Positions 1,133 through 54,957 are shown, counted from the first letter of the stretch. The stretch: DNA of 64,000 nucleotides from a virus (IMGVR_UViG_3300041964_000083:89953-153952); one strand, 5' to 3'. The notes: a model not told the origin generated them from the sequence alone. Numbers and translations are program-made.

Positions 1133-2290
1133 TTAGTCTCTAATCTGTACGGGCATATCAGGTAAGTCATCTTCAACTCACCTAGGGGTACGAGTATGAC
1201 CGGAGTATCAGCGGTATTAATCAACATCTGAATCTCTGTAGTCGCAAGCGTCTTTAAGCCATCAATTAAGTATTTAACATTGAAGGCTATAAGTAAGTCA
1301 TCACCTGATACCTGAATAGGCATTGACTCTTGTCCACTACCAACATCTTGAGCATCAACCGATAAAGTAAGCTGCTGGTTAATGCTGTCAATGCTGAACT
1401 TAACCGTATTGTTTTTCTGGTCAGCTAGTACGCCGATGCGCTCCACTGCACCAAGTAACTGCCGTCGATCAATTGTGACTTGCCGCTGGAACTGAACTGG
1501 AATCAACTGCCGATAGGCTGGGTATGTTCCTTCTAGTGTGCGACTCGTTAAGCGCTGCTCTCCCTCCTGAAAGACAAGCTGACCTTGCTCAAAATGAAGC
1601 ATAACCGTATCTACTGGTTGCTTGGTGGCAATCATCCGTTCAAGCTCTTTTAGCGCTCTAGTGGGCACGGTGACTTGAAATGGCTCAACACTTTCTTGAT
1701 TGTCTTCGCTCTGATTTTTTGTTTCTACAACGGCAAGGCGATGCCCATCTGTGGCAGCAAACTCTAAGCCATCTTGCTGAACAGTTAAGTGAACACCAGT
1801 TAGTACCTGTTTGGTTTCATCGGGACTAGTGGCAAACAGCGTGCTACCCAACCCTTGCTTTAGCGCTTCAACGGGGTAGGCTAATTGCCGTCTCTGATTG
1901 CACCTGTGGAAGTGCTGGGAATTCATCAGCACTCATCCCGCGCATTTGATAGCGCCCAGATGCTGAAGTTAGCGTGACGATATGGCTACCTTCAGCATCG
2001 CCTTCTCCTGATTTCTCAGATAACGTGATTTCCCCTTCAGATAGACGAGAAACAATATCACTAAGTAGTTTTGCCGGAATGGTTAGTTTTCCGCTCGTTT
2101 CTACCGTAGCGGCAAAACTGGTCTGAATGCCAAGACTCAGATCAAATGCGGTAAGCGTCACCTTCTGTGCTTCGGCATCAGCCACGAGCAGCACATTACC
2201 CAATATTGGGTGGGTAGGACGAGAGGGAACCGCTCGACTTACTAGAGAGAGGTTTGTGTTGAGTTCGCTTTGGATGCAGGTTAGTTTCAT
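1133..2290 (-). CDS. dnaN: DNA polymerase III beta sliding clamp (frameshifted near 1875 and 1160)
   Basis: MKLTC..SRAVPSRPTHPILGNVLL, AATDGHRLA, EGTYPAYRQLIP, IAFNVKYLIDGL; restoring the indels gives the usual MPVQIRD* end. Confidence 0.93.
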
Positions 2291-2325
2291 GGTTTTGTCC
2301 AATGTTGGTTGTTGTGTGCGATCGC

Positions 2326-2577
2326 CTAATAACTGTCAGTGCCTAAAATCTTAGATTTTGGTTTGGGTTTGTTTACCCGCCACTTTTTAAAGCTACGTTC
2401 GCTATACCATTGAGGAGGACTACCATTCCAAGAAGCAAATACTTTTTGGTTGTCGATATCAACCTCAATTATTTTGAGCGTGTAGAGCGCGCCGTATGAA
2501 ATCTTGACCACACCCATCTGCTGACGACGCACTTCATAGACGATTTGCTCTGGCTTAAGTCGATTAATTGATGCCAT
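2326..2577 (-). CDS. Hypothetical phage protein
   Basis: 83-aa ORF in operon. Confidence 0.6.
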   Translation of the reverse strand: MASINRLKPEQIVYEVRRQQMGVVKISYGALYTLKIIEVDIDNQKVFASWNGSPPQWYSERSFKKWRVNKPKPKSKILGTDSY

Positions 2578-2614
2578 GTTTATGCCTCATTAATGAAAGT
2601 TAGTTGCAAATAAA

Positions 2615-3037
2615 TTATGTGCGATCGCGCTCCTCTTTATCTGGAAAAGTTGCCCAAACAGGAACTTCGCCTAAACAAATCCAAATAAACAAGTCTTCCC
2701 AGTACCCAGATTGAGCCTGAAGAGTTATTGATTCTGTTAACAAAGAAAGCGATCGTGCATTACGAAATGAGCAAGCGTGCGATCGCTTTACAACTTTAAA
2801 AGGTATATGTGCCGTACCCTTAAAATTGTTGTGTATAGAATCTGAATCCACAAAAACGCTCATTGGATGTACGTTTAATTGTTGTGCTGATTCATACATT
2901 TGCCGAGTGATGTCAAACAGCAGTACAACTTCATCACCAATCATAAAACTGGCAAATGAAGATAAATCGTTACCGTCGTATAGATTGAAACTACAGTCTA
3001 TTGCAGTTTCGTATTTGCGAGATTGAAAATATACCAT
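2615..3037 (-). CDS. Hypothetical protein (likely start 3037)
   Basis: ATG preceded by AGGA-CGCGATCGCAC. Confidence 0.55.
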   Translation of the reverse strand: MVYFQSRKYETAIDCSFNLYDGNDLSSFASFMIGDEVVLLFDITRQMYESAQQLNVHPMSVFVDSDSIHNNFKGTAHIPFKVVKRSHACSFRNARSLSLLTESITLQAQSGYWEDLFIWICLGEVPVWATFPDKEERDRT

Positions 3038-3054
3038 GTGCGATCGCGTCCTGT

Positions 3055-3507
3055 TTAAAACAAATTTAACTGTCCTGGAACTTCTGCTAAACATCGCTCC
3101 ACTTCATCAATCACAGCTTTAGCGAAGTCTCTGATAAGTGTGTCGTGATAGTAGCCAAACTCTTCATCCGTAGGGCGACCCCACCAACCCGACTCGTGGA
3201 TGATATCAACAGCAAGAATACCCCCATTGGGAATATCGAGGTAAATACCCCATCCTCTGTACGGTTGGATTTCGTTCTCAGGATAGTCACACTCCTCACC
3301 CATATGAATAAAACCAAATTGGTCTACAAGCTGATCAATCCTGCCAGCTAATCCAGTCAAATGAGAGGCTCTTAGCTTGTTGGTGTCAATTTTGAAAACT
3401 TCAGGCAACTCTAACAAGACACCACCACAGTCTTCATGCTCCATCTCACTTAAGTTTTCGAGGCTATCGATGATTTCGTCACAGCGGGAACAACGGTACT
3501 TAGTCAT
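3055..3507 (-). CDS. Hypothetical protein with N-terminal CxxC and C-terminal clamp-binding-like QLNLF
   Basis: YRCSRC...HEDCGG; ends GQLNLF. Confidence 0.65.
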   Translation of the reverse strand: MTKYRCSRCDEIIDSLENLSEMEHEDCGGVLLELPEVFKIDTNKLRASHLTGLAGRIDQLVDQFGFIHMGEECDYPENEIQPYRGWGIYLDIPNGGILAVDIIHESGWWGRPTDEEFGYYHDTLIRDFAKAVIDEVERCLAEVPGQLNLF

Positions 3508-3668
3508 GTGCGATCGCGTCCTCCAATCTTTTCGTAAATAAACTCTCTAACTGCATCCGCCATAGTGGTTTTGTTTTTTTGACACCACTCAGCAAATGCC
3601 TCTTTGTCGGATTTCTCCAAATGAACATGGATATCCGCAGGCTCTTTATATCTCTTAGGTCGTGGCAT
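3504..3668 (-). CDS. Ribbon-helix-helix (CopG-like) regulator, 54 aa
   Basis: Manual translation MPRPKRYKEPADIHVHLEKSDKEAFAEWCQKNKTTMADAVREFIYEKIGGRDRT; divergent from 3801 gene. Confidence 0.75.
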   Translation of the reverse strand: MPRPKRYKEPADIHVHLEKSDKEAFAEWCQKNKTTMADAVREFIYEKIGGRDRT

Positions 3669-3800
3669 TTCTTTAATTCGGTCTATGGGTTATACTATAT
3701 ACCATAAACCAATAATTGCAAAGCAAAAGCGATCGCGCACCTCGGACTGGAAATCTGGTTACGCGATCGCCTAGCACTACCCAACTACTTAGGAGCACCA

Positions 3801-4705
3801 ATGGAAATCATACGTCGCGTTGACAACAACGTCGAGTTTTACACAGTAACTGCTACCGGAAAATCTGGAATGAGTCAAAGTGGTTTATCAATTCTTTCTG
3901 GAGTTACCCGCCAAGCTATTATCAAAATCGAAAAGACCCTTGTAACCGAAGCACCATCTAAAACGCTGGAAAGGTTTGTGGGTAAGGATTTTACCCTTGT
4001 AACCGAAAATGCAATGATTGATGGTAAACCAACCGGAAACCTCAATGTTTACGCTTCGCCGTTTTGCGGAGCAGTGATTCGTCACTATGCATACAAAGGT
4101 AACGATACGGCACAATATAGCCTTGAACAGTTCTCTGATATGGGGATAGAGAAGTGGATTCAAGAGATTACTGGATGGACTAAACCCAATCAACCGTCTC
4201 AAGCATCAATGGTTGGGTACTGGGCAGAGCGGCAGCGGCTATTCATCCAGAAGACTACAATCCCTAGTGGGTGGTTCTGTGTCTTTGAGGAATTGGCTAA
4301 GTTGATGTGGCAGCTTGAGAACTTGGGTATGTTATCCCCGACTACAGTCCAGTAACCAACAAACGGATTATGCCCGATATATCGATTGGTAAAATATTCT
4401 GCAAATATATGCGGAAGAATGGCTACGCTGTTGACTCTACTGTTCGCAGCTACCCGCATTATTATCCCGGATGGGCGTTACCCGTAAACGCTAACATTTA
4501 CCCCAATGCTTGGTTAGAAGTGTTTCGAGCTTGGTTTGATGAGCAGTGGAAGCCGCAACGGTTGGTTAAGTATTTAGGAAAGCGCGACCCCGATAGTATG
4601 CCTTCAATCTGCAAATTGTTAGGTTTACCTGAAGCGCCAGTGCAACTTGAACTACTTACTGTTAAAAATGGCGAGATTCTAGTACTCAAAGATTGCAACA
4701 GCTAA
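3801..4705 (+). CDS. KilA/antirepressor-like protein with BstA-like C-terminal domain (frameshift near 4325)
   Basis: Joined frames read IPSGWFCVFEELA..GYVIPDYSPVTNKRIMPDISIG..YPHYYP..IYP..FRAWF..KYL. Confidence 0.6.
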
Positions 4706-4769
4706 CTCAATTATCTAGACTGACAACGTTTCGTTGTCAGTCTACCACTAGAACCAATACCCAAACCTT

Positions 4770-7344: not shown

Positions 7345-8310
7345 CTAAATTAATCCTGAAACAATTTCCGACATCTCTCCCTGAGCATTCTTCCGATTGT
7401 CATCATAGATCAGTAAGGTGTCAGACTTACTATGGCGAGAGAGCTTCTGCACCCGCCTCACGTCTCCATTCGTCGCATCCAGTGCCGCTGTTAAGGTCGA
7501 GTGCCGGATGCGGTGAGGTGAGAATATCTTTTTAATACCAGCTTGAGTCGCAATTTCTCGAACAATCCGATACACACCATCACCCGTGAGAGGATGCCCG
7601 TAGTGGGCATTATTGAGTGCGATAAATAACGGGTCGCCTTCCTCCACCTCGCCTCGGCAATCCAACCATTCCTGAATTGCCACTACGGTTGTAGGTGGCA
7701 ATTCAACCCGCTCCACCTGAGTCCCCCGACCTTTTCCTAAAATACTGAGCGTTCGTTTTCTCGCATCAAAATCCCCAACCTTTACCAGCGCCTCACTGCG
7801 CCGCAGAGCATTGGACCAGAATAATCGAAGCAGTGCATAATCTCGCTTCCCTTTCAACGTTGCGCGATCGCACACTTCAAGCATCGCCTTAAATTCATCA
7901 ACGCTCACCCCAGAGGTATCCCGATACGTCCGGCATCGTTCACCCTTAATTTCCTCAAGGGTAAATTTACATTTATCAAGTTTACGTGCATAAGCCGTCA
8001 ACGACTTAATCGCTGCTAGCCGTCGATTAACCGTCGCCTCTTTCAACCCCTGCGCCAACAACTGAGCTTTATACTTCAGCACCACCTTAATCGCATCTGC
8101 CCGCGCCAACCCCAAAAACTGTCCAACAGCTTCTGGGGTTGGTTTGGTTTTAGTCAAGAACTCGAAGAAGTACCCCAAGTCTTTCTCATATGCACGACGG
8201 GTGTTACGCGATCGCTTATCAGCCAGCAAGTCACGAATTAAGTCATCATCTTCAATGTGTTCAGCAAGCCAAGATGGTTGCTGAGTTGCGAGGTTACTCA
8301 CGCTCAACAC
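7345..8310 (-). CDS. Tyrosine recombinase (XerC/XerD-like, cyanobacterial plasmid/phage type)
   Basis: SAM-like N-terminus (NTRRAYEKDL, ATVNRRLAAIKSL); catalytic R (LRRSE), K (GKG), HRIRH, SRH, IYDD. Confidence 0.92.
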   Translation of the reverse strand: MLSVSNLATQQPSWLAEHIEDDDLIRDLLADKRSRNTRRAYEKDLGYFFEFLTKTKPTPEAVGQFLGLARADAIKVVLKYKAQLLAQGLKEATVNRRLAAIKSLTAYARKLDKCKFTLEEIKGERCRTYRDTSGVSVDEFKAMLEVCDRATLKGKRDYALLRLFWSNALRRSEALVKVGDFDARKRTLSILGKGRGTQVERVELPPTTVVAIQEWLDCRGEVEEGDPLFIALNNAHYGHPLTGDGVYRIVREIATQAGIKKIFSPHRIRHSTLTAALDATNGDVRRVQKLSRHSKSDTLLIYDDNRKNAQGEMSEIVSGLI

Positions 8311-22252: not shown

Positions 22253-23393
22253 TAGCCAGTCTAAATGATTCGTGAAAGCGAATGCCGCGAATAAGTGATA
22301 AAGTAGAAAGTTATTTTAGGGAAATAATAATGATATCTGAGTCGAGAGAGAAAGAAATTAAGACTTTAACAGACTTCATCACTAGTAATCCAGACCCCAG
22401 AGAGTTGAAGAGAGCCTTGGCGATAAAATTAGCACTAGAAGGCTATGCTTATCGAGCTATTAAACAAAGTTTAGGAGTGTCTTATGGATTTATAAGTAAA
22501 TGGAAAACAAGTTTTGAAGCCTGGGGAATATCCGGAATTAAATTAGCTCATAAAGGGAGCCAAAGTTTCTTGACTGAAGAACAAATAGAACAAGTAATAA
22601 CTTGGCTATTTTCCCAAAATCATTGGGATATATCCGAATTAGAAGTTTATCTAATAGACCATTATGACGTGGTCTTTCAATCACCGCAGAGTTATTATGC
22701 GCTGCTGAAGAAAGCTCGGATAAGTTGGCAAAAAGCTCAACAAGTCAATCCTCGCCAAAACCCGGAATTGGTAAAAAAAAGAACTCAAGAACTCGCCAAT
22801 CTCCTGGAAAATAGACGCCAAGAGATAGAAGCGGGAAGCCTTGTCGTCTATCTTATAGACGAATGTCATCTGCTGTGGAATGATATTTGTGGTTACCTAT
22901 GGAATTTCATTAAAAATCCTCGAAAAGTTCCCCTGCTCAATCCTAAAGAAAGACAAACTTACTATGGAGCCTTAAATTTAATGTCTCCGGACTTTGTTCT
23001 ATCAGCTTATCAGGCTGGAAATGGGGAATGTACGGTAGATTTTGTCAAGAAATTACTGGAAAGAAATAAACGGGCGAAACTTTTGCTGATTTGGGATGGA
23101 GCCATCTATCATCGTGGTCAAGAAATGCAGGAATTTTTAGCTCAACACAATGATGGTTTATCTCCCGATGAATGGCGAATTACTTGTGAGTTATTTCCTG
23201 CCTATGCTCCCGAAGAAAATCCGGTTGAAGCCATTTGGTTACAATTAAAAAGTTTACTGAGAAGATTTTATAGATTTGGGAAGAATTTTAACATAGTTAA
23301 ACGTCTTTTCAAAATGTTTGCTGACCTAAAACTTTTCAATTTTCCTAATCTTGAAAGGTATCAGGCATTTTCACAATTCATTTAGACTAGCTA
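22253..23393 (+). mobile_element. IS630-family insertion sequence
   Basis: TIRs tagccagtctaaatga / tcatttagactagcta; TA duplication at 22251-52 and 23394-95. Confidence 0.92.
22282..23385 (+). CDS. tnp: IS630-family transposase
   Basis: HTH N-terminus; DDE triad in IDEC, IWDGAIYH, PEENPVEAIW. Confidence 0.95.
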   Translation: MPRISDKVESYFREIIMISESREKEIKTLTDFITSNPDPRELKRALAIKLALEGYAYRAIKQSLGVSYGFISKWKTSFEAWGISGIKLAHKGSQSFLTEEQIEQVITWLFSQNHWDISELEVYLIDHYDVVFQSPQSYYALLKKARISWQKAQQVNPRQNPELVKKRTQELANLLENRRQEIEAGSLVVYLIDECHLLWNDICGYLWNFIKNPRKVPLLNPKERQTYYGALNLMSPDFVLSAYQAGNGECTVDFVKKLLERNKRAKLLLIWDGAIYHRGQEMQEFLAQHNDGLSPDEWRITCELFPAYAPEENPVEAIWLQLKSLLRRFYRFGKNFNIVKRLFKMFADLKLFNFPNLERYQAFSQFI

Positions 23394-40380: not shown

Positions 40381-41677
40381 AACAGGGAGGAACGCAAGTG
40401 TGCGGTTTTAACCGCCTACAGTCTATTGGTATTTTCATAGATTTTGGTGTACGATAAACATTATTCACTTGTGAGATTTTACTGACTTGAAACAAGTTCT
40501 GACTATAGCTTGTAAGCTTCAACCAAGCCTTGAGCAGGTTTTCAAAATAGAAGAACTGCTCAAGGCTTTTGCTGATGGCTGCAACTATGCGAATCAGAAC
40601 GTCAAAGTTTCGATAACCAGTAAAACAACTATTCAGAACTTGGTGTATCAATCCCTGCGAGAGCAGTTTGGATTGAGCGCCAACCAAGCCGTTAGAGTGT
40701 GCGCCAGAGTTGGAGCTAATCGAAAGACAGCAAAACTCAAAGGTAAACCTGTTAAGGAATTCAAGCCAACCAGTGCTGACTATGATGCTAGGATCTTCTC
40801 GTTTAGAGAAAAAGACTGGACAGTTAGCTTGACACTCCTCAATGGTCGAGAACACATCAAAATAGATGCGGGAAACTACCAAAGAGGAAAACTTAAAGGT
40901 AGAACACCAACATCTGCTCAGTTGTGTAAACACCGCGACGGCAAGTACTACATCCACATTCAGATTAAGGATGACGCGCCTGATCCTGTTAAGACAAAAA
41001 ACGTTATCGGTGTTGATTTTGGAAGGCGTGACATAGCCGTAACTAGCAATGGGGACAAATGGGATGGAACTGGAATAACCAAAGCCAGAGATAAGTTTTC
41101 CAAGCTCAGAGCTTCTCTCCAAGCAAAAGCCTCGAAAGGCACAAGAACGAATCGAAGACGAGTTAGAAATATCTTGAAACGGTTGTCGGGGCGTGAGAGA
41201 AGATATCAAACGTGGTTGAACCACACAATTAGTCGAGCAATCATTCAGGATGCCTTGAAGTCTAGCAGCCTTGTCGCTATTGAGGACTTGACTGGCATCC
41301 GAGATAGAACCAATCAACAACCCCGCAATAAAACAGAACGTAGGCGCTCCAACTCGTGGGCATTCTATCAACTTCGACAGTTTCTTGAATACAAAGGTAT
41401 TCGAGCGGGAATCGAAGTGATAGCTGTCTCCCCTAGGTACACAAGCCAAACGTGCCATCAATGCCTGCATATTGGATTGAGGTCTGGAAAGCGGTTTGGT
41501 TGTACCAATAAAAGCTGTGGTTGGCATGGGGATGCTGATTGCAATGGTTCTGAAATGATTCGGCTCGTGGGCTTGTCCGTAACGCAAGCTGAAGGCTCGA
41601 AGATTCTTAGCTGTGAACTCAGTTGGGACTCTTCAGGGCTATTGAAAGCCCCGTCTCTTTAGAGCGGGGAAGTTTAC
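40344..41677 (+). mobile_element. IS200/IS605-group TnpB-only (IS1341-like) element
   Basis: Subterminal hairpins aagccctgtctctttagaacaggg and aagccccgtctctttagagcgggg; ends GTTTAC; 5' TCAC target; no TSD; host frame restored on removal. Confidence 0.88.
40487..41662 (+). CDS. tnpB: RNA-guided endonuclease TnpB
   Basis: RuvC D/E/D in GVDFG, AIEDL, DADCNG; YTSQTCHQC..C..C zinc finger. Confidence 0.95.
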   Translation: MKQVLTIACKLQPSLEQVFKIEELLKAFADGCNYANQNVKVSITSKTTIQNLVYQSLREQFGLSANQAVRVCARVGANRKTAKLKGKPVKEFKPTSADYDARIFSFREKDWTVSLTLLNGREHIKIDAGNYQRGKLKGRTPTSAQLCKHRDGKYYIHIQIKDDAPDPVKTKNVIGVDFGRRDIAVTSNGDKWDGTGITKARDKFSKLRASLQAKASKGTRTNRRRVRNILKRLSGRERRYQTWLNHTISRAIIQDALKSSSLVAIEDLTGIRDRTNQQPRNKTERRRSNSWAFYQLRQFLEYKGIRAGIEVIAVSPRYTSQTCHQCLHIGLRSGKRFGCTNKSCGWHGDADCNGSEMIRLVGLSVTQAEGSKILSCELSWDSSGLLKAPSL

Positions 41678-43727: not shown

Positions 43728-46700
43728 ATGTATTCATTCCAAAATCTAACCCGCCCCACAGGAACAAAAGCCAAGCTACAAGCCAACCTTGAGGCAGTGA
43801 GACTGCTCAAAGAGCTAGAACACCATACACCCACATCAGCCGAGAAAGATATACTTGCTCAGTTTGTAGGATGGGGTACAGTTGCCAGCGCGATTAATAA
43901 AGAAGTGCTAGAGCTTCTGCCCAACGCTGACTTAAATAGCGATAACGCTTTCCAAACTTCTAAGCCAATTATCGAGGCAATGTGGGAGGTATTAGCCCAG
44001 CTTGGGTTTACTAGCGGGCGGATATTAGAGCCAAGCGCAAATATTGGTTTATTTCCTGGACTACAACCGATTACGCATAGAGAAAAATCTGAATGGTGTT
44101 TAGTTGAAATTGATCCAACCGCCAGCGCGATCGCACAACACCTACACACCGACGTGATCGTTTATCCCAAAGGTTTTGAGAAAGTACCCCTACCCAGTGA
44201 GTTTGATTTAGTCGTTGGTAACTTTCCATTCGGTAAAACCGCACCGTTTGATCCCAATTATACAGACTTCTCATTATCTCTTCATAATTACTTCTGGCTA
44301 AAATCCTTTGATGTTTTGCGAGTCGGTGGAATTGTTGCAGCTATCACCAGCACTGGAACGCTGGACACCAAGCCAGAAGTATTCTGTAAGTTATTGGCTG
44401 AGAAGGGGGCTAAGTTAATCGATGCAGTGCGACTCCCCAACACAGCATTCAAAGATATGGGTACAAGCGTTACTGCTGACCTTATTATCCTACAGAAGTC
44501 AGCCACACCCCAGTCTGGAGTGTGGCTGGAGACAGTTGAAAGCGAGGTTTTAGATAACAACGGAAACCCGATTGAGATAAACCGCTATTTTGCCGAGAAC
44601 CCGGATAAGGTGCTCGGTACTCTCGCCAACTGTACGCTGTATGACGGCGATCGCATAGCGGTTAAAGATGACGGGCGAGATATTAAGCAAGCAATCATTA
44701 AAGCATTTGACATCGAAACGATGTCAGTTTACAAACCGTTACGCAATCCAGTCAGCTTACGGGGGAAACTTCTGCCATCTGAGTTAATTGGTATTAACCC
44801 GTATTCATTCTTACTTCAAGACGGAAAAGTTTACCAGCTACGACCTGATGAGGGTTTAGTGTTGGTAACGCTGAACTCAGACCGAATTAAGGCTGGGTTA
44901 GCACTGAAGTCCACCTTAACTGAGCTTGTAGAAGCGGAAGTAAATGATCGAGAGTGCGAGGGGTTGCGATCACGTCTTAACTTCCAGTACGACCAATTTG
45001 TAAGGCAGTACGGGAACCTACTCAACCCGTACAAGAAGACTCGATCTATATTCACAGACGATAGCGAACTCTATTCGATGCTTTTTGCGCTAGAGGAGAA
45101 ACATGAACTAGAGGATGAGCTGTCAGAAGAAGAGAATCAGGGCTTCGGTGAAGAAATACCTAAGACTCGGAAAAAACTAAAAAAGGAGGTTTACTACACC
45201 AAAGCGGATATTTTCTACAAGAAAGTATCGGGAAGCATCAGAACGCGATCGCACGCTATCACTCAACCCATCGACGCGGTGCATGAGTGCTTAGACAGCT
45301 TAGGTTATCTGGACATCAAGCGAATAGCCGCACAGTTAGACAAGAGTGAGGAAGACGCGATCTTAACTCTTAAGGCTGAGGAGCTAATGTTTTTTGACCC
45401 ACAATTAAAAAAGTGGGTAGTACGGGATGAGTACATTAGTGGTGATACACGCGCCAAGTTACGGCTAATCAGAACGATTAAGCAACTTGATCCGAAGTGT
45501 TTTGCGGAGTGGAAACTAGCTGATAATGAAAACATTCTGACTCGTAGAGACAGTAAGGGGCGATACGTTAATATTTCCCCTTACCTGCTTCCCCCCGCTA
45601 GCGCTGAAATTAAAGCCGATATCGCCCACCGGTTAAAGATTCAGTTTGATATTGACTGCGATGAAGACCCAGAAGCCTATATAAGAGTTGGACTTGGAGC
45701 TAACTTTTTATCAACTCAGGATATAAAAGAGTTTGCCGCTCATATTATTGGTTCTCTTAATGCACAATCTATCAAGTGCGATCGCGTACCAGGATTGGCG
45801 CTTTGGGCAGTCAAGGGCGACAAAAACCTTGCAGCTAAATCTCAGTATGCATCGGAGGGTAGTAGCGGTAATGGTAAGATGGACGCCTTAAAGCTGCTTG
45901 AACATGGCTTAAACCATGCACCCATCAAAATCAAGATTACCTACAAGGCAGCAGACGGTACAGAGTACACCGATCAAAAGGCTACTGAAGAGGCAACAAA
46001 CAACGCCGTAGCAGCACTTGAGCGAATTAAGACTGAGTTTAAACAGTGGTTGTGGCAATGCCCTGAGCGGGCATGGAGAATTACACAAGAATACAACCAC
46101 CTTTATCCACGTCCATTACGGCGCACATATGACGGTAGTTTTTTAACACTACCAGACAGCAACGGTGCAATTAAGCTTAAGACGCATCAGTTAAATGCTG
46201 TAGCACGAATGCGGCAAACTAATCGCTGTTTTCTGCTGCATGAAGTTGGAGTAGGAAAAACATTTAGTCTGATTGCTGGCGCTTATGAGTCAAAGCGGTT
46301 AGGGAAAGCTAATAAACCGCTAATCGTAGTTTTGAAGGCGACATTAGGGCAGTTTGCCGCCAGTTACCGCGCACTTTACCCAAACGCTAAGTTACTAATA
46401 GCTGATGAAGATAGCTTCAACGCCGAGAACCGAAACAAACTAATTGCGAAAATCCAGACAGGTGATTATGACAGCATCATCATGACCCATGATCAGTTCT
46501 ATGCAATCCCTATCAGTTTTGCCGCCAAGATGCAGTGGATTGAAGGGCAGTTGAAGATAGCTCAAGACTATCTGAGTACTGGTGATAAGGCGGATCGTCT
46601 GTTACATCGGGAACTAGAACGACAAGTTGAAGACCTACAAGACCAGTTGAATCAGCTCAAGATTGAAGAAGAGATTGCAGCCGTTAAGCATGATGCGATC

Positions 46701-49106
46701 GCGCTGAAGTCTCTACTCAAACAATTGGAAGCTGATGGCAAAATTGTTATTGATGTTAAAGGCGCGATCGTTTTTAAGGATAAAAAAGGCAAACACGCTA
46801 AGAAAACAGAAAAAACAGCCAAGGTACTGAGCCAGAAAAACAAAGACAAGAAACGGGATACACTCTCTAACTCAATTGATAAAGCTTTCAACCACTACAC
46901 CCGTAACACGATAAATATTGAGTGGGAACAGCTGGGAATCGATTGGATAAATTTTGACGAGTTTCACGCTCTCAAGAATAAAAAGCTGCAAACCAAGCAG
47001 GTAGGTACTGCCGGGATTACCAACAGCGACACGCAGCGGACGCTTAACTGTTATCTCAAATTTCGCCAAGTTTACGAAAATGGTGGTTTTATCGGAGGCG
47101 CTACCGGAACCTACCCGACTAGCTCAATAACAGAACTTTATAATTTGCTGGATTTCTTTGCTCTTGAAGAGTTGAAGAGTACTGGTACTGAGCATTTTGA
47201 CAGTTGGTGTAGTCAATTTGCTGAATCTACGACCGAGCTAGAGTTTACTAGCACTGGGGGATTGAAGCAGAAAACACGGATATCTCGCTTCAAAAATCTA
47301 CCTATCCTTATGGATATGCTGGCAGAGTTTACCGACTTTGCTACAGCGACGGAGTAGGAGTACCGCGTCCTGATGTAGCGCGATAACAATTACAGCCCCA
47401 TTATCAAACGAGCAAGATAAGCTCAATCAGATAATTGCGGGGTATATGGAGCAGGTGCGTCGTGGTCCAGATTATGCACCAACTTACACCAATAAAGAGG
47501 GAAGACGGTTGCTCATAACCCGCTTACTTTAACGGGTATGGGAAGCGCGATCGCGATTGACCCACGGCTTGTTTACCCAAAGGCTAAAAACTTTCGGGAT
47601 AGTAAACTCAACAAACTTATCCACAATGTTTTCCACATCTGGGAAGCAACACAAGAGCAGAAGTTAACTCAGTTAATTTTTTGCGATGCATCCACGCCTA
47701 AAACCGATGGGAGTCTGAACACGTATCAGTACATTAAGGATGCACTCGTTGCACTAGGAAAAAACCCCAAGGAAATAGCTTTTATCCACGACTACGAAGG
47801 GCAAAAGAGAGCGCGGTTATTTGAAAAGATAACTCAGGGTGAGGTCAGAGTGATGATCGCCTCAACTCAGAAAGGGGGAATAGGTGTAAACGTTCAAGGT
47901 AACCAGAAACTACTAACAGGTGGAGTAGTTGCAGTTCATCACCTCGACCTGCACTGGACACCCGCCAGTATGGAGCAGCGCAACGGACGTGCACATCGTC
48001 AAGGCAATCCATGTCAAAAACATGGCAGTTTTATTACGGTACTAGCGGTAAGGGTGATTCACCTGGGTTTGATGCCTACAAATTCGACTTGGTACGCAAA
48101 AAAGCCGCGATGAATTATCAGATTATGTCAGGTAAGGTGACGGCTTGGGAGTGTGAAGATATTGGTGCTGATGCTTCAACCTATATGATGGCAGCGGCAG
48201 CACTTAGCGGCAAAACTGAGGCGATTGAACACGCTAAAGTACTCGATAAACTGCGGAAACTTGACGCCAATGATCGGCAGTTAGGCAATAAGCTTTTAGG
48301 TCAATCGATGAGCAAAAGGAAATTGATAGTGCGATCGCACAAGCTATTAAAGATTTAGCCAACGCAACAACCGATCAGGAGCAGGCACTAGAAGCAGGAG
48401 AGCTGACAGGTAAGTCGTTCAAGGTTGTAATTGAGAAACGCACCTACAAGAATTGGACGAATGCAGACGAAGCATTTAAAGATGCTGTAAGGAGTACGCA
48501 AGGGGTATTTAACGAGCAAAAGCTAGGCAGCATTGCGGGATTCAGCATCATCAAAAAGCAGACGTATGTGTATCTGGTCGGAAAGCAAGACTACTAACAG
48601 CGCGTAATAGCCTAGATTCGGTGCGAGACAAGGTAAAAGACATTGCTGAGGGTAAGTATGTCGATGAGGCTAAAGATCAGCTGGCATACCTAGAGAAGCG
48701 CAAACTAGACTTGCCCAGTGAAATAACCAAACTCTCAGCCGAGTTGAAAATCCTCAAGCATGAGATTGAAGGTTTAGTAACACGGGAGAAGGAGATCAAG
48801 GCTATCCTCACGGCTACCAAGAAAGAAGATGAGAAGGATAAGCCCAAGGAAACAGTAAAACTAATTGATGGTGTACTTGCTCCAGTGCCATCTGTTTACA
48901 AAGGGGTTGAGCCAAAAATTGTTGATTACATCAAATCGCTACCCGAACCCACCAGCATCGACACCGATAAGGTGGAGCTTCGCTGGATAGACGAGATGCG
49001 AAATTTAGAGCGCGTGTTTGTGGAGTCAGTCGCAGATGTTGAAGTAGCGCGGCAGAAGTTAGAGCAAGTTTATCAAACGACCGAACTCAGACTGAACTCA
49101 GCCTGA
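43728..49106 (+). CDS. DarB-like N6-methylase + SNF2 helicase fusion (several frameshifts after 47340)
   Basis: ANLEAVRLLKEL..QFVGWG, ILEPSANIGLF, VVGNFPFG, DAVRLPNTAF, HEVGVGKT, FDEFH, GATGT, QLIFCD, WTPASMEQRNGRAHRQGN. Confidence 0.85.
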
Positions 49107-51421: not shown

Positions 51422-51601
51422 TGTCTAGTCGATTAATGAGTTCAGTGTTTGCGGCGCTAGTAGGTGAGTAGAGGATGAGTTAAAACTACCTACCCTAGCC
51501 TGTAATTGGCGTCACAGTACAACTGTTGCGCTGGAAAGAAACTCACTGGCAAAACAGAGAGGATAGTGAAAGAACACGGATTTAGAGCGGAATTAGTGAC
51601 A

Positions 51602-52165
51602 ATGAAGCTTTTACTTTTGGACATGGATGGAACTGTCAGAATGCCAATCTCTGACAACAAGTTTATCAATCAGCCGGACGACCAACGCCTGATTGATGGT
51701 GTATCAGAAGCGATCGCGCATTACTCCGACTGGACAATTATCGGCATCACCAATCAAGCGGGTGTGGCAGCAGGACATAAAAGTTTAGAAGACGCGATCG
51801 CAGAACAGCAATACACACTAAAACTTTGTCCTTGGTTAGACGCTATCTATTTTTGTCCTGATTTTGAAGGAAATTCATGTTTCTACGTCAACAAAGAAGA
51901 GCGCGTAGTTGCGGTACATGAACACTGGGGAAAATATCGCCACATGATCGGCTCATTCAGAAAACCTAATCCAGGTATGCTCCTATTAGCCGTAGAGCGA
52001 TTTTTATGGAATCTCATGCCAATCAGTAGAAAACCTAATAAAGAATTTGTTCTCTACGCAGGAGATAGGGAAGAAGACCAGTTAGCCGCGCAAGCCGCAT
52101 ATATACCTTTTATATGGGCTGACAACTGGAGAAAGGAAGAAGGTCAACATAGCTCTCAGATTTAG
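51602..52165 (+). CDS. HAD-IIIA phosphatase (polynucleotide 3'-phosphatase/GmhB-like)
   Basis: LLLDMDGT, ITNQAGV, RKPNPGML, YAGDREED. Confidence 0.88.
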   Translation: MKLLLLDMDGTVRMPISDNKFINQPDDQRLIDGVSEAIAHYSDWTIIGITNQAGVAAGHKSLEDAIAEQQYTLKLCPWLDAIYFCPDFEGNSCFYVNKEERVVAVHEHWGKYRHMIGSFRKPNPGMLLLAVERFLWNLMPISRKPNKEFVLYAGDREEDQLAAQAAYIPFIWADNWRKEEGQHSSQI

Positions 52166-52270
52166 TTCGATGTTGCCGCGATCACAACATCGCTCGGTGG
52201 TGGCGGACATCTTAACGCCGCAAGCTGTGCGGTTGACCCAACAGACGAACGAATTAAAATATTTGTTTGA
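52166..52270 (+). pseudogene. DHHA1-domain C-terminal remnant
   Basis: FDVAAITTSLGGGGHLNAASC in frame after the HAD gene TAG. Confidence 0.65.
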
Positions 52271-52338: not shown

Positions 52339-52698
52339 TTAATGCTTCTTTCTGCGACTGCCTGAGCGGTGAGGCGATCGCGCATAATGTTTCTCGCAAT
52401 ATGGATGTTTTGCCCCTGGTTTGATTAGCACCTCTTGCTGTAGTTCCTGCCAACACCCCAAACATGGGAGTTGCGTCTCAATAACTTCGCTTCGTATTCG
52501 AGTAGCGCCTCCAAACGAATTACCGACAAGAACGCCCAGTAACTTAGCGTTGTAAGCACCTTGCCATTGAGAGCGATTGCGATACCAAGAGAATAAATCC
52601 CCTACTATCGACCAGTCTGTTTCAGGTGAACCTGCGATCGCAACGCCCTTAGTCCCATCTACTTCAGGGTAGATGGATTTTATTTTCTCAATATCCAA
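52339..52698 (-). CDS. Hypothetical protein with C-terminal CxxC..CxxH zinc finger
   Basis: CLGC...YCEKH; divergent from csx3. Confidence 0.55.
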   Translation of the reverse strand: MDIEKIKSIYPEVDGTKGVAIAGSPETDWSIVGDLFSWYRNRSQWQGAYNAKLLGVLVGNSFGGATRIRSEVIETQLPCLGCWQELQQEVLIKPGAKHPYCEKHYARSPHRSGSRRKKH

Positions 52699-52788
52699 AG
52701 CCTGAAACGCCCTAGCCTCAACAACTAGCAGCGTGTATTCGTCCCTGTTAAAGGAATAGATTCAATCATTGTTAAGCAATTGTAAAGA

Positions 52789-52821
52789 ATGTAACCAAGA
52801 TACTAGACAACTTGGTTACAT
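52789..52821. promoter_or_regulatory. 11-bp inverted-repeat operator overlapping csx3 promoter
   Basis: atgtaaccaag-11 bp-cttggttacat around TAGACA (-35); TATATT follows. Confidence 0.7.
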
Positions 52822-52872
52822 CTAATCTATATTGGATTTAGTGAAGCAAACAAGGTTACGGAGATACTACAA

Positions 52873-53173
52873 ATGAGTCTTTACAATATCGAATTGGTTG
52901 ATGGCGTTCTTAAAGTTGGTTTTGGTGATGAGCCAGCAGGTAATGACGTGATCGTTCCTGAAGCAGTAGCCAAAGCATCTGCTCTCAAAGATGAAGTGAT
53001 GGGTAAAGTTCTGAAAATCAATGGTCCAGCATCATTACCTGTTGCGATCGCGATTGGTCATGAATTAAGTCATGTCGTTCCCGCAGTTGCTTGCTTCGAT
53101 CCAAAACTAGGTGGCTATGTGGTGAGCGTATCCCATAGCCCTGAATACAAGCTAGGGTCAAATCATCCAGTAA
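52873..53173 (+). CDS. csx3: CRISPR-associated ring nuclease Csx3/Crn3-like (extra G at ~53155 fuses it to next ORF)
   Basis: LKINGPASLPVA..GHELSH...VACFDPKLGGYVVSVSHSPEYKLG; the duplicate 3' end at 54112 reads LGQIIQ*. Confidence 0.82.
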
Positions 53174-53202
53174 TACATAGCAACAACAAAGGGAAAAACA
53201 AA

Positions 53203-53553
53203 ATGCTTGCATATCACGGCGAAAAAATTGGAGAAAGAGGCGGATTTATCCATTCATACGGAGGAAACTTTTACTTTGTGGTAACGGGTTTCTTTCTTCA
53301 AGGAGATGGCTGTATGGCAGTTGGTATTAGAGAAGAAGACGGTCGCGTTGATACAGGTTGGGCTTATGGCTTTAACCGCTCTAAAGAAGAGGTTGTTAAA
53401 CAGGTTAATGCTCTCCCACTAACTAAGGAGCAAAGGCTAGAACTCTTGCAAAATGGCATTTATCCCAAAGAGATAAAAATCGAAAGCCACCAATACTACA
53501 AAGGGTATCCACGAGCTGGAATGTTTGACGAATTACTGCATCTGGTTGAGTAA
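53203..53553 (+). CDS. Hypothetical protein
   Basis: Own ATG after AAGGG/A-rich leader. Confidence 0.55.
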   Translation: MLAYHGEKIGERGGFIHSYGGNFYFVVTGFFLQGDGCMAVGIREEDGRVDTGWAYGFNRSKEEVVKQVNALPLTKEQRLELLQNGIYPKEIKIESHQYYKGYPRAGMFDELLHLVE

Positions 53554-53672
53554 CATTAATCGAATGCCGTCTTAGATTAATGGTCTAAAACGGCATTCTA
53601 AAAGGTTAGAAGACTAACCCAGTCTGTTTCCATTCAATTAGTTACCCCGTTAAGGGATATTTAGAGAGTACC

Positions 53673-54068
53673 ATGATTAAGTTAATGTCAGCACTACCCA
53701 ATTCATTGATAGCTGCCCAAGATAAATACACCGTAACCGTTACAGGCATTCTTGAGGTAAAGGTTATTGAATATTTAGTCTGCCGACGCTTTGTTTCTTG
53801 CGTTGGGCATGAGTCAACCGCAAAGCTTTTCAGTGAGAGACTTGACCTGAGTGTATCTATGAACCGAGAGCAGGTTGATTTGAATGTAGGAGACACGATC
53901 ATTGCTGGCTTATTTACTCCTCCTCGCAGGCTAGCAGAAGGAATACTATGGACAGAGGAAGAGATTTTAGCCATGCCCATTAACTGGGTGTTAGTGCAAA
54001 AGCACGTAACAGAATGCATTCAGATTGTTGAGGGGAGTAATAATTATCAACCTTATCTGCTTGTTTGA
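53673..54068 (+). CDS. DUF1874/YddF (AcrIII-1-like) viral ring nuclease
   Basis: FVSCVGHESTAKLFS..L...V.MNREQVDLNVGD..I....RRL.EG matches the STIV B116/AcrIII-1 SxxGHxxTA and NR pattern. Confidence 0.78.
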   Translation: MIKLMSALPNSLIAAQDKYTVTVTGILEVKVIEYLVCRRFVSCVGHESTAKLFSERLDLSVSMNREQVDLNVGDTIIAGLFTPPRRLAEGILWTEEEILAMPINWVLVQKHVTECIQIVEGSNNYQPYLLV

Positions 54069-54240
54069 TTAATCTTTTGGGATTGGCTACGTTTTTGTTA
54101 CAAGTGTGAACGTAGTAAGCGTATCTCATAGCCCTGAATACAAGCTAGGTCAAATCATCCAGTAATACCGTTAGGTGGCTGGAAGTAGAGGCTTCCAGCC
54201 ACACGTAAGATAAGCAGAGTCAACCTATCAATTATCTATC

Positions 54241-54957
54241 ATGGCAAAATTCACAGAAACCCCAATATTGAGCAATCGCTTTTCTCATGCCGTCAACCTT
54301 GCTCTTCTGTGGCATCGCAATCAGGTTAGAAAACAAGGCGTGCCTTATGTGTCTCACTTACTCCAAGTCTCAGGTCTAGTCATCGAACATGGCGGTAGTG
54401 AAGATGAAGCGATCGCAGCCGTCTTACACGATGCAGTTGAAGATGTTGACATCCCCATCGAACACATCAGAGAGTTGTTTGGCGAGAAGGTTGCCAAAAT
54501 CGTCAATGCGGTATCAGAGGATAAAGCACTTCCACGAGAGCAACGCAAAGCCGCTTATGTGTTGTCGATTGGAAATAGCGATCGCTCTGTAGGCTTGGTA
54601 AGTGCAGCAGACAAGCTACACAACCTACGGTGTTACGCTAATCAGCCTGAGTTGTTAGATGAAGGTGTTTGCTTGTTCTACTGCCGATTGATTCCAGAAT
54701 ATGCAGCAGTATTGAATGAAACAACCGCTTCCTATGATTTTCGAGTAGAAGAGGAACATCCTATGGTTGCTGAGATGAAAGCAATCTTGCTAGCCAAAAT
54801 TCTTCCTGTGGTTTCAAACCAATGGGTCGTTGGTGATGCTGACTGGAATGAAGATAGTTTTATGTATGGTGAAGCGCGAGTTGTTAAATCTGTTGATTTA
54901 AAGCTTTGGGATATTGGGTACATTCGCGCAATCACAGCTACTAGCGTGATTGCTTAA
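54241..54957 (+). CDS. HD-domain hydrolase, small alarmone hydrolase (Mesh1/SpoT-HD-like)
   Basis: HRNQVRK..PYVSHL..V, AAVLHDAVED, FGEKVA.IV, ADKLHNLR. Confidence 0.88.
   Translation: MAKFTETPILSNRFSHAVNLALLWHRNQVRKQGVPYVSHLLQVSGLVIEHGGSEDEAIAAVLHDAVEDVDIPIEHIRELFGEKVAKIVNAVSEDKALPREQRKAAYVLSIGNSDRSVGLVSAADKLHNLRCYANQPELLDEGVCLFYCRLIPEYAAVLNETTASYDFRVEEEHPMVAEMKAILLAKILPVVSNQWVVGDADWNEDSFMYGEARVVKSVDLKLWDIGYIRAITATSVIA

Follow-up and report, generated by a model that had tools for sequence, protein, structure and literature searches.

At positions 52873-54957 of the viral DNA considered here, three genes follow one another on the plus strand: a csx3/crn3-like ring-nuclease gene, a ring-nuclease gene of the DUF1874/AcrIII-1 family and a gene for an HD_4 hydrolase. 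The DNA analysed (hereafter the window, to which all positions refer unless another contig is named) is the final 64 kb of a 153,952-bp virus record in IMG/VR (IMGVR_UViG_3300041964_000083:89953-153952). An initial annotation, made from the sequence by a model, had placed these three genes in a single plus-strand run and had read them as two stacked ring-nuclease families joined by a hydrolase. All three genes, and so both ring-nuclease families, are indeed present in that run, and profile searches for Csx3, DUF1874 and HD_4 each gave a match above the Pfam cut-off. That annotation missed a minus-strand gene at 52339-52769, whose product joins another Csx3 domain, catalytically degenerate, to a zinc ribbon. 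This gene with its candidate operator, csx3 and the HD_4 gene together form a module that is conserved among phage-like contigs.

Two Csx3-fold genes and their module

The csx3/crn3-like gene occupies 52873-53172 on the plus strand, and comparison with its relatives indicates a natural product of 99 aa ending in ...LGQIIQ. It opens a longer frame of 226 aa (52873-53553), within whose N-terminal 100 residues the Pfam Cas_csx3 profile finds a partial match, to profile positions 41-75, with a score of 28.9 bits against a cut-off of 21. Among solved structures the Csx3 of Archaeoglobus fulgidus (AfCsx3) was the sole match by sequence, and a weak one (E 0.2; about 22% identity). An AlphaFold2 (AF2) model built on 40 relatives was nevertheless confident (predicted local distance difference test, pLDDT, 95; predicted template modelling score, pTM, 0.84). 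When this model was submitted to Foldseek, ranks 1-13 were all AfCsx3 chains, with 6yud, 3wzg, 6vjg and 3wzi on top, a probability of 1.0 and template modelling (TM) scores of 0.6-0.69. As modelled, the product has the Csx3 fold, and the Csx3/Crn3-like assignment made earlier is borne out.

AfCsx3 (Crn3/Csx3; PDB 3WZI, 6YUD, 6VJG; PF09620, TIGR02579) is a cellular, Mn-dependent ring nuclease acting on cyclic tetra-adenylate (cA4), and its residues H57, H60, D69 and H80 are essential or important for cleavage (PMC7371418). They correspond to H63, H67, D76 and H88 of the window protein, which are invariant or nearly so in the 40 relatives; K78 is likewise conserved in the clade. The two proteins are alike in fold, in the His/His/Asp/His set on two faces and in being small and stand-alone, and cellular relatives of the window Csx3 sit beside cas10. 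The window Csx3 would on these residues be a Mn-dependent cA4 ring nuclease as well. Csx3 of M. mazei, when heterologously expressed, weakens cA4-mediated immunity (PMC7371418).

The divergently oriented gene upstream (52339-52769, minus strand), here called Csx3-ZnR, encodes a divergent Csx3-fold domain to which a CxxC...CxxH zinc ribbon and a basic tail are joined at the C-terminus. Members of its family are about 140 aa long, and the zinc ribbon is invariant in the family alignment. The longest open reading frame (ORF) of the window gene (52339-52698) has no Pfam match of its own. A homologue of 130 aa in the phage-like contig L088 (6256-6645) matches Cas_csx3 with 51 bits over nearly the whole profile and is 48% identical to the window protein (BLASTP E 3e-30). 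An AF2 model of Csx3-ZnR (pLDDT 80) likewise returned A. fulgidus Csx3 for all of the Foldseek top 10. Because profile-profile comparison with the short Csx3 was weak (probability 7%, with the expected YNP/FDP strand aligned), the homology of Csx3-ZnR to Csx3 rests on the L088 intermediate and the fold search. The family lacks the His pair, mostly has Asn at the position of Asp69 and has no His at that of H80, and with these residues ring-nuclease activity of the AfCsx3 type is unlikely. Csx3-ZnR matched no helix-turn-helix family, and scans of IMG/VR and of JGI metagenome contigs with the family profile yielded no confirmed relative.

Between the two genes lies a perfect 11-bp inverted repeat, ATGTAACCAAG-N11-CTTGGTTACAT (52789-52821), a candidate operator that straddles the -35 box of a sigma-70-like promoter into csx3 (TAGACA-18-TATATT, 52804-52833, plus strand; a match to consensus alone, at 10/12). 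The repeat is identical in the divergent intergenic regions of the window and of contigs L097 and L094/95, the remaining intergenic sequence having diverged, and it recurs upstream of the Csx3-ZnR gene in contig L096 (4671-4699). In L096 the repeat and Csx3-ZnR stand beside a run of small genes (1502-4644, minus strand) with no significant family match, and csx3 is absent. A 22-nt direct repeat, 77% identical, is also seen in the window, one copy over the ribosome-binding site of csx3 (52848-52869) and the other over the left arm of the operator (52784-52805); this may be an additional, weaker binding site or a chance resemblance.

The genes for Csx3-ZnR, Csx3 and HD_4 co-occur in at least four phage-like contigs, namely the window, L097, L094/95 and L088; the contigs other than the window look like phage in their TnpB, dCMP deaminase, ThyX and RecD2-like helicase genes. 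In L097, Csx3-ZnR (77% identical) is divergent from a csx3 gene (90%) that has an intact C-terminus, with a hairpin and HD_4 (47%) downstream. In L094/95, Csx3-ZnR is again divergent from csx3 (74%), and a 79-aa gene, HD_4 (56%) and a gene combining a P-loop kinase with a PNK3P domain come after it. L088 has everything on one strand, in the order csx3, three small genes, HD_4 (47% identical over its full length, C-terminal extension included) and the Csx3-ZnR homologue.

By analogy, a regulator-like gene that travels with a palindrome while the cargo varies has the pattern of anti-CRISPR (Acr) operons with an anti-CRISPR-associated (Aca) regulator. The points of likeness are the small divergent gene, the conserved inverted repeat over the -35 box and the variable cargo, as in L096. 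Unlike Aca proteins, Csx3-ZnR has no helix-turn-helix; it joins a CARF-like ligand-binding Csx3 fold to a zinc ribbon, which places it closer to cellular Csa3, a CARF protein with a winged helix-turn-helix (CARF-wHTH), than to any described Aca, and the signal molecule itself could control it. Csx3-ZnR may accordingly be looked upon as a candidate regulator or sensor of the module.

A profile scan for relatives of the short Csx3 gave at least 117 cellular loci and four further viral contigs (L004-L007), three of which are 136-155 kb long. Searching IMG/VR with the single sequence found nothing, where the profile gave these four loci, and tblastn of Csx3 against 50,697 deposited phage genomes gave no match, nor did the DNA of the locus match any of those phages. 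Cyanobacterial copies immediately precede cas10/csm operons; in Stigonema, for instance, csx3 is followed by a 198-aa gene and then by cas10, RAMPs and a CARF protein. Short Csx3 is also widespread in the candidate phyla radiation (CPR)/Patescibacteria (L008-L012, L020, L029, L038, L045, L054, L055, L062 and others), where many csx3 loci have a TrmB-family regulator and/or a 138-aa unknown gene adjoining and no cas10 within 7 kb. One of the viral contigs, L004 (IMGVR_UViG_3300005573_000055, 155 kb), carries a 164-aa ORF (4251-4745) that is a SAVED domain alone (Pfam 30.7 bits), about 1.2 kb upstream of its csx3 and beside radical-SAM genes. In 2025 a viral SAVED protein was described that has cA4 ring-nuclease activity (PMC12751052), and L004 may hold another stacked pair of signal-binding or signal-degrading genes.

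Unlike AfCsx3, the window protein belongs to a short subfamily (about 99 aa) whose phage members form their own clade. In a short, unrooted tree of 89 sequences, eight phage Csx3 and five Saccharibacteria sequences share one group (96% support), and the cas10-linked cyanobacterial clade (97% support) is separate from it; a phage csx3 nested inside that cyanobacterial clade is rejected by this tree. The initial annotation had spoken of a host-type Csx3 co-opted by the virus. Since the tree is short and unrooted and the phage copies make up a clade of their own, recent capture of csx3 from a host is left unsupported, and on this phylogeny an old viral Csx3 lineage is as likely as such a capture. 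A 2025 survey of 28,114 phage genomes recorded AcrIII-1 (36 genomes), Csx20 (4) and Csx16 (2) and no Crn3; of the CRISPR loci with a ring nuclease, only about 4% had more than one (PMC12409355), which makes a stacked pair unusual. A paper of December 2025 describes Crn3 solely as cellular (PMC12830947). Phage Csx3 is absent from the published ring-nuclease surveys that we searched.

The cassette inside csx3

The DUF1874/AcrIII-1 (Crn2-family) gene (53673-54068, plus strand) encodes 131 aa and is recognised by both Pfam and PDB searches. The STIV_B116-like/DUF1874 profile (PF08960) scores 52.1 bits against a cut-off of 26 over profile positions 2-98 of 101, the protein is assigned to PHROG 5063, and among solved structures it matches AFV3-109 (PDB 2j6b; E 1.9e-9) and also STIV B116. 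Its segments GHEST (the GH-x-S/T-T catalytic His motif), NR and RLxEG align with those two proteins, and in SIRV1 gp29 the catalytic His47 and the contacts Arg66/Arg85 lie in the same motifs (10.1101/778746). Among deposited phages its nearest relatives are genes of the Microcystis phages MaMV that carry no annotation (39.5% identity). Thus the earlier assignment to DUF1874/AcrIII-1 is upheld. The protein is like AcrIII-1/Crn2 proteins (SIRV1 gp29, AFV3-109 of PDB 2J6B, THSA-485A AcrIII-1) in its Pfam family, catalytic His motif, Arg contacts and viral location, and would be expected to cleave cA4. It is unlike known AcrIII-1 in its C-terminal extension of about 25 aa and in being part of a recent cassette inside another ring-nuclease gene.

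Contig L097 shows csx3, hairpin and HD_4 uninterrupted: it is homologous to the window through csx3 as far as 53173 and again from 54110 on (blastn segment 54110-54196), so that the 936 bp at 53174-54109, which hold orf116, a hairpin and the DUF1874 gene and are absent from L097, are identified as an insertion. On its two sides a repeat search found a direct repeat on the plus strand. Copy 1 (53119-53176, 58 bp) is the 3′ end of csx3, and copy 2 (54112-54168) is an orphan csx3 3′ end that keeps the ancestral frame up to the stop (...SHSPEYKLGQIIQ); three synonymous changes and a 1-base indel distinguish it from copy 1. By this arrangement, orf116 and the DUF1874 gene are a recent insertion into the 3′ end of csx3, with the target duplicated.

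The small gene orf116 (53203-53553, plus strand) had initially been listed as a separate unknown gene. In the window it forms one 226-aa open frame with csx3, which corrects that listing; it has its own ATG and stand-alone homologues. The homologues are 108-116 aa long with the same Met start, the best being 65% identical over its full length, and they occur in phage- or plasmid-like contigs without csx3 or DUF1874 beside them. No match to orf116 was found in Pfam, PHROGs, NCBIfam or Atlas. The 226-aa 'fusion' of csx3 and orf116 results from one extra base at ~53155, where repeat copy 1 reads GGG and both copy 2 and L097 read GG. A hairpin with a 15-bp stem (53562-53598) follows orf116.

The HD_4 hydrolase and its association with csx3

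The last gene of the run (54241-54957, plus strand; 238 aa) follows a GC-rich hairpin (54175-54202, plus strand) between the end of csx3 and HD_4, and a hairpin lies in the same position in L097. Its product is a small alarmone hydrolase (SAH) of the Mesh1/SpoT-hydrolase type by profile (HD_4, 76.2 bits against a cut-off of 27.2; PHROG 990) and by its PDB matches, which include the SAH 7qoe (E 4.5e-21) and Mesh1 and range from 4.5e-21 to 1e-15. The H...HD...ED...D..N metal and substrate motifs are all aligned with 7qoe, Mesh1 and Rel hydrolase domains. There is a single hydrolase domain and no RelA_SpoT domain. A C-terminal extension of about 100 aa is common to the closest relatives in the clade (P0005, P0008/L088), and an Atlas look-up for this part gave nothing usable. 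The family given in the initial annotation therefore stands, and the gene is no incidental extra: it is a conserved operon partner of csx3. The protein resembles phage SAHs (PVP-SE1, SSU5), ATfaRel and Mesh1 in its single HD_4 domain with all motifs, and it shares with the phage proteins a phage location without a synthetase; it is unlike known phage SAHs in being fixed in a csx3 operon and in its long C-terminal extension.

An association of HD_4 with csx3 is also seen in cells. In 13 cyanobacterial type III loci of about nine genera (including L013, L016, L018, L019, L023, L027, L028, L039, L040, L048, L058 and L061), an HD_4 gene lies beside a TIGR03985 CRISPR-associated gene, divergent from csx3-cas10, RAMP and CARF genes. 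In three further cellular loci (Entotheonella and two CPR) HD_4 falls within 7 kb of csx3, a number near chance expectation. A 2018 catalogue of type III accessory genes makes no mention of ppGpp, SpoT, 'phosphohydrolase' or 'HD domain' (PMC6546367). In a tree of 135 HD_4 sequences no others stand further from the phage HD proteins than the CRISPR-linked ones. Capture of HD_4 and csx3 together from a host CRISPR locus is rejected on this ground, and, because the two HD clades are far apart, the pairing arose at least twice and was not copied as a unit. Since linkage to csx3 is repeated in phage contigs and in host type III loci, the HD_4 substrate may belong to the CRISPR signal pathway and not be (p)ppGpp, and this recurrence is the chief argument for placing the enzyme in one pathway with Csx3.

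Two accounts of this gene have to be weighed. In the first, which follows the initial annotation, HD_4 is an independent anti-defence or host-takeover gene that merely shares an accessory island with the ring nucleases and hydrolyses (p)ppGpp/(p)ppApp, or removes pyrophosphate from tRNA, against toxSAS/CapRel abortive infection or the stringent response. Its closest solved relatives are SAHs and Mesh1, and the phage HD clade is not the CRISPR-linked one. The chief argument for this account is that every toxSAS toxin tested was neutralised by the SAHs of the Salmonella phages PVP-SE1 and SSU5 (PMC7229694). This account leaves unexplained why HD_4 is retained directly behind csx3 in diverged contigs and why another HD_4 clade is found at the edge of csx3-cas10 loci; we regard it as a serious contender, at somewhat less than an even chance. 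A role as the antitoxin of a toxSAS encoded by the phage itself is rejected, there being no RelA_SpoT synthetase on the virus record.

In the second account HD_4 carries out the step after Csx3: Csx3 would open cA4 to A2 with a 3′-phosphate, HD_4 would strip the 3′- (or 2′,3′-cyclic) phosphate from the linear A2, or act on another type III nucleotide, a HAD/PNK3P enzyme would perhaps help, and host nano-RNases would finish the process. The main product of AfCsx3 is indeed A2-P (PMC7371418), and MESH1 is reported to remove a ribose 3′-phosphate from coenzyme A (CoA) (PMC13221220). Such a division of labour would fit the single operon of csx3 and HD_4 in four diverged phage contigs (csx3 54-90% and HD 47-56% identical), the linkage of a distinct HD_4 clade to csx3 and cas10 in the 13 cyanobacterial loci, the HAD 3′-phosphatase in or beside the module in two contigs and the lack of a synthetase partner on the virus. 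The argument is one of guilt by association alone, however, and the 13 host loci may stem from a single ancestral arrangement. Furthermore, HD_4 is missing at the four other viral csx3 loci, all the SAH motifs for 3′-pyrophosphate hydrolysis are kept, and stand-alone phage SAHs act against toxSAS (PMC7229694). On balance a second step of this kind seems possible but rather unlikely.

The HAD phosphatase noted earlier upstream of the run is confirmed (51506-52165, plus strand; PNK3P 27.1 bits against a cut-off of 22). It is of the HAD-IIIA type (PNK3P/GmhB-like), NCBIfam HAD-IIIA/GmhB matches being below their cut-offs, and its true start is likely the Met before DMDGT at ~51602. In L094, the gene after HD_4 (2425-3474, minus strand) has a weak P-loop kinase match (AAA_33/Zeta-toxin-like) and a PNK3P domain; the window phosphatase is weakly similar to it (31% over 75 aa). 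The L094 layout is that of a polynucleotide kinase-phosphatase and hints that 3′- or 5′-end healing is part of the module in some phages. The 'DHHA1 remnant' of the initial annotation, a supposed trace of a DHH/DHHA1 phosphoesterase, is not supported: the match, at 52154-52237, covers about 28 codons (84 bases) with one internal stop and scores 12.2 bits (E 0.03) against a cut-off of 25.9.

A probable counter-defence operon

Viral ring nucleases are the main known viral way to disarm cyclic-oligoadenylate (cOA) signalling. Judged by its gene families, the locus is probably a counter-defence operon of this kind, directed against the cOA signalling of type III CRISPR in cyanobacteria, which we hold with moderate confidence. 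The Csx3/Crn3-type Mn-dependent enzyme would destroy the cA4 signal, and DUF1874/AcrIII-1, of unrelated fold, would be a second cA4 destroyer in the same transcription unit, the 936-bp cassette having brought the two ring-nuclease folds together when it carried DUF1874 and orf116 into the 3′ end of csx3. The promoter overlapped by the palindromic operator would control csx3, and Csx3-ZnR, divergently transcribed here and co-transcribed in L088, would regulate or sense for the module. HD_4 would be the fixed partner, acting on (p)ppNpp, on tRNA pyrophosphorylated by toxSAS or on 3′-phosphorylated products of cA4 cleavage.

The setting of the genes is compatible with such a role. CheckV gives the 153,952-bp record a completeness of 98%, and IMG/VR classes it as linear and without end repeats. 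The cyanobacterial HIP1 octamer palindrome occurs at 110 sites in the window against 0.6 expected, and, with the host group taken from this richness, the element is probably a large cyanobacterial virus. A portal protein, an integrase (7345-8310), a KilA-N protein and insertion sequence (IS) elements are encoded on the record, which also contains a TnpB (OrfB_IS605/Cas12f-like TNB) gene (40487-41662, plus strand) and a DDE_3 transposase gene (22282-23385, plus strand). Unlike AfCsx3, the window Csx3 is encoded by a virus with no match to Cas10 or RAMP and no CRISPR-like array anywhere on its record. This agrees with the initial annotation, for which a cas operon elsewhere on the element would have counted against its reading, and the absence of cas10 is as expected of an anti-CRISPR copy. 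An anti-CRISPR role of the operon would follow from the families of its genes.

A number of observations weigh against this interpretation. The window Csx3 scores 30.4 bits with the NCBIfam Crn3/Csx3 equivalog, below the cut-off of 55.4; Lys (K78) stands throughout its clade at the position of AfCsx3 Arg71; and its His pair is spaced i+4, where AfCsx3 has i+3. All of these, with the low identity, set it apart from AfCsx3. At the four other viral loci, L004-L007, DUF1874 and Csx3-ZnR are, like HD_4, not found near csx3. SIRV2 gp37, an AcrIII-1 homologue, is expressed late and shows no anti-CRISPR action in native infection (10.1101/2023.01.10.523387). Lastly, the genes are interrupted in this copy. 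The extra G at ~53155 shifts the csx3 frame five codons before the natural stop, so that the frame continues to 53553, and the Csx3-ZnR gene lacks one base directly following ATGATTGAA (~52760, codon 3/4), which leaves the first 23 codons present but out of frame and the longest open ORF at 52339-52698 (119 aa). About 5 kb upstream, an SNF2/ResIII-like helicase gene (43728-48358, plus strand) is split into at least three ORFs; its frame changes several times within 47357-47538 and once more in an A5 run at ~48011.

The frameshifts in csx3 and Csx3-ZnR are either assembly error or decay. If they are real, the cluster is partly dead here, only the inserted AcrIII-1 and HD_4 would be functional, and AcrIII-1 would be replacing Csx3. 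That the insertion sits within csx3, that both genes carry single-base indels relative to L097 and the family consensus and that the nearby helicase gene is broken in several places would be expected of decay. Yet both indels fall in short homopolymer runs, where assembly errors typically arise; the indel in csx3 leaves the fold intact as far as residue 95 of 99; and the Csx3-ZnR frame, its one frameshift aside, is open and conserved, at 74-76% identity to its homologues. We consider a partly dead cluster unlikely.

It is also conceivable that the module serves lysogeny, a low level of ring nuclease, tuned by Csx3-ZnR, sparing the lysogen from type III autoimmunity against prophage transcripts. 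The integrase and IS elements of the record and the candidate operator at the operon promoter would suit this purpose, and cellular ring nucleases do act as off-switches (PMC12409355). The record shows no sign of integration, being linear and without end repeats, and the biochemistry would be the same as for the counter-defence operon, with a difference in timing and not in mechanism; such a use seems quite improbable. A more elaborate proposal, of which we are very doubtful, joins a signal-sensing circuit to a two-step disposal. Here the dead Csx3-ZnR would repress at the palindrome until cA4 binds, so that the ring nucleases would be switched on only once type III CRISPR has fired. HD_4, as the dedicated partner of Csx3, would strip the 3′-phosphate (or another modification) from the linear products or act on a further type III nucleotide, and Csx3 and HD_4, a pair found in cyanobacterial type III loci too, would be an unrecognised accessory pair there. 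Two other explanations fail outright: a virus with its own CRISPR system, for the lack of Cas10, RAMP and array, and an RNA-repair set with ligase, since neither RNA ligase nor RtcB was found on the virus.

Taken as a counter-defence operon, the locus resembles other viral ring-nuclease systems (Csx16/Csx20, Crn4b, viral SAVED) in that a virus would degrade the cOA second messenger. It is unlike them in the folds employed, and the reports in PMC12409355, PMC12830947 and PMC12751052 list no phage Crn3 and no two families side by side. To the published viral ring nucleases, AcrIII-1, Csx16, Csx20, Crn4b and viral SAVED, the locus would add Csx3, and it presents two unrelated ring-nuclease families stacked through a traceable insertion event. 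It also reveals a conserved module of three genes, for Csx3-ZnR (with its operator), Csx3 and the SAH-type hydrolase. Csx3-ZnR is a candidate for a ligand-controlled anti-CRISPR regulator of a type not yet described, and, if it is an Aca-like regulator, the small genes of L096 are candidate new counter-defence cargo. Finally, the occurrence of the other SAH clade at csx3-cas10 loci raises the prospect of a role for alarmone-hydrolase-type enzymes in type III signalling or its clean-up.

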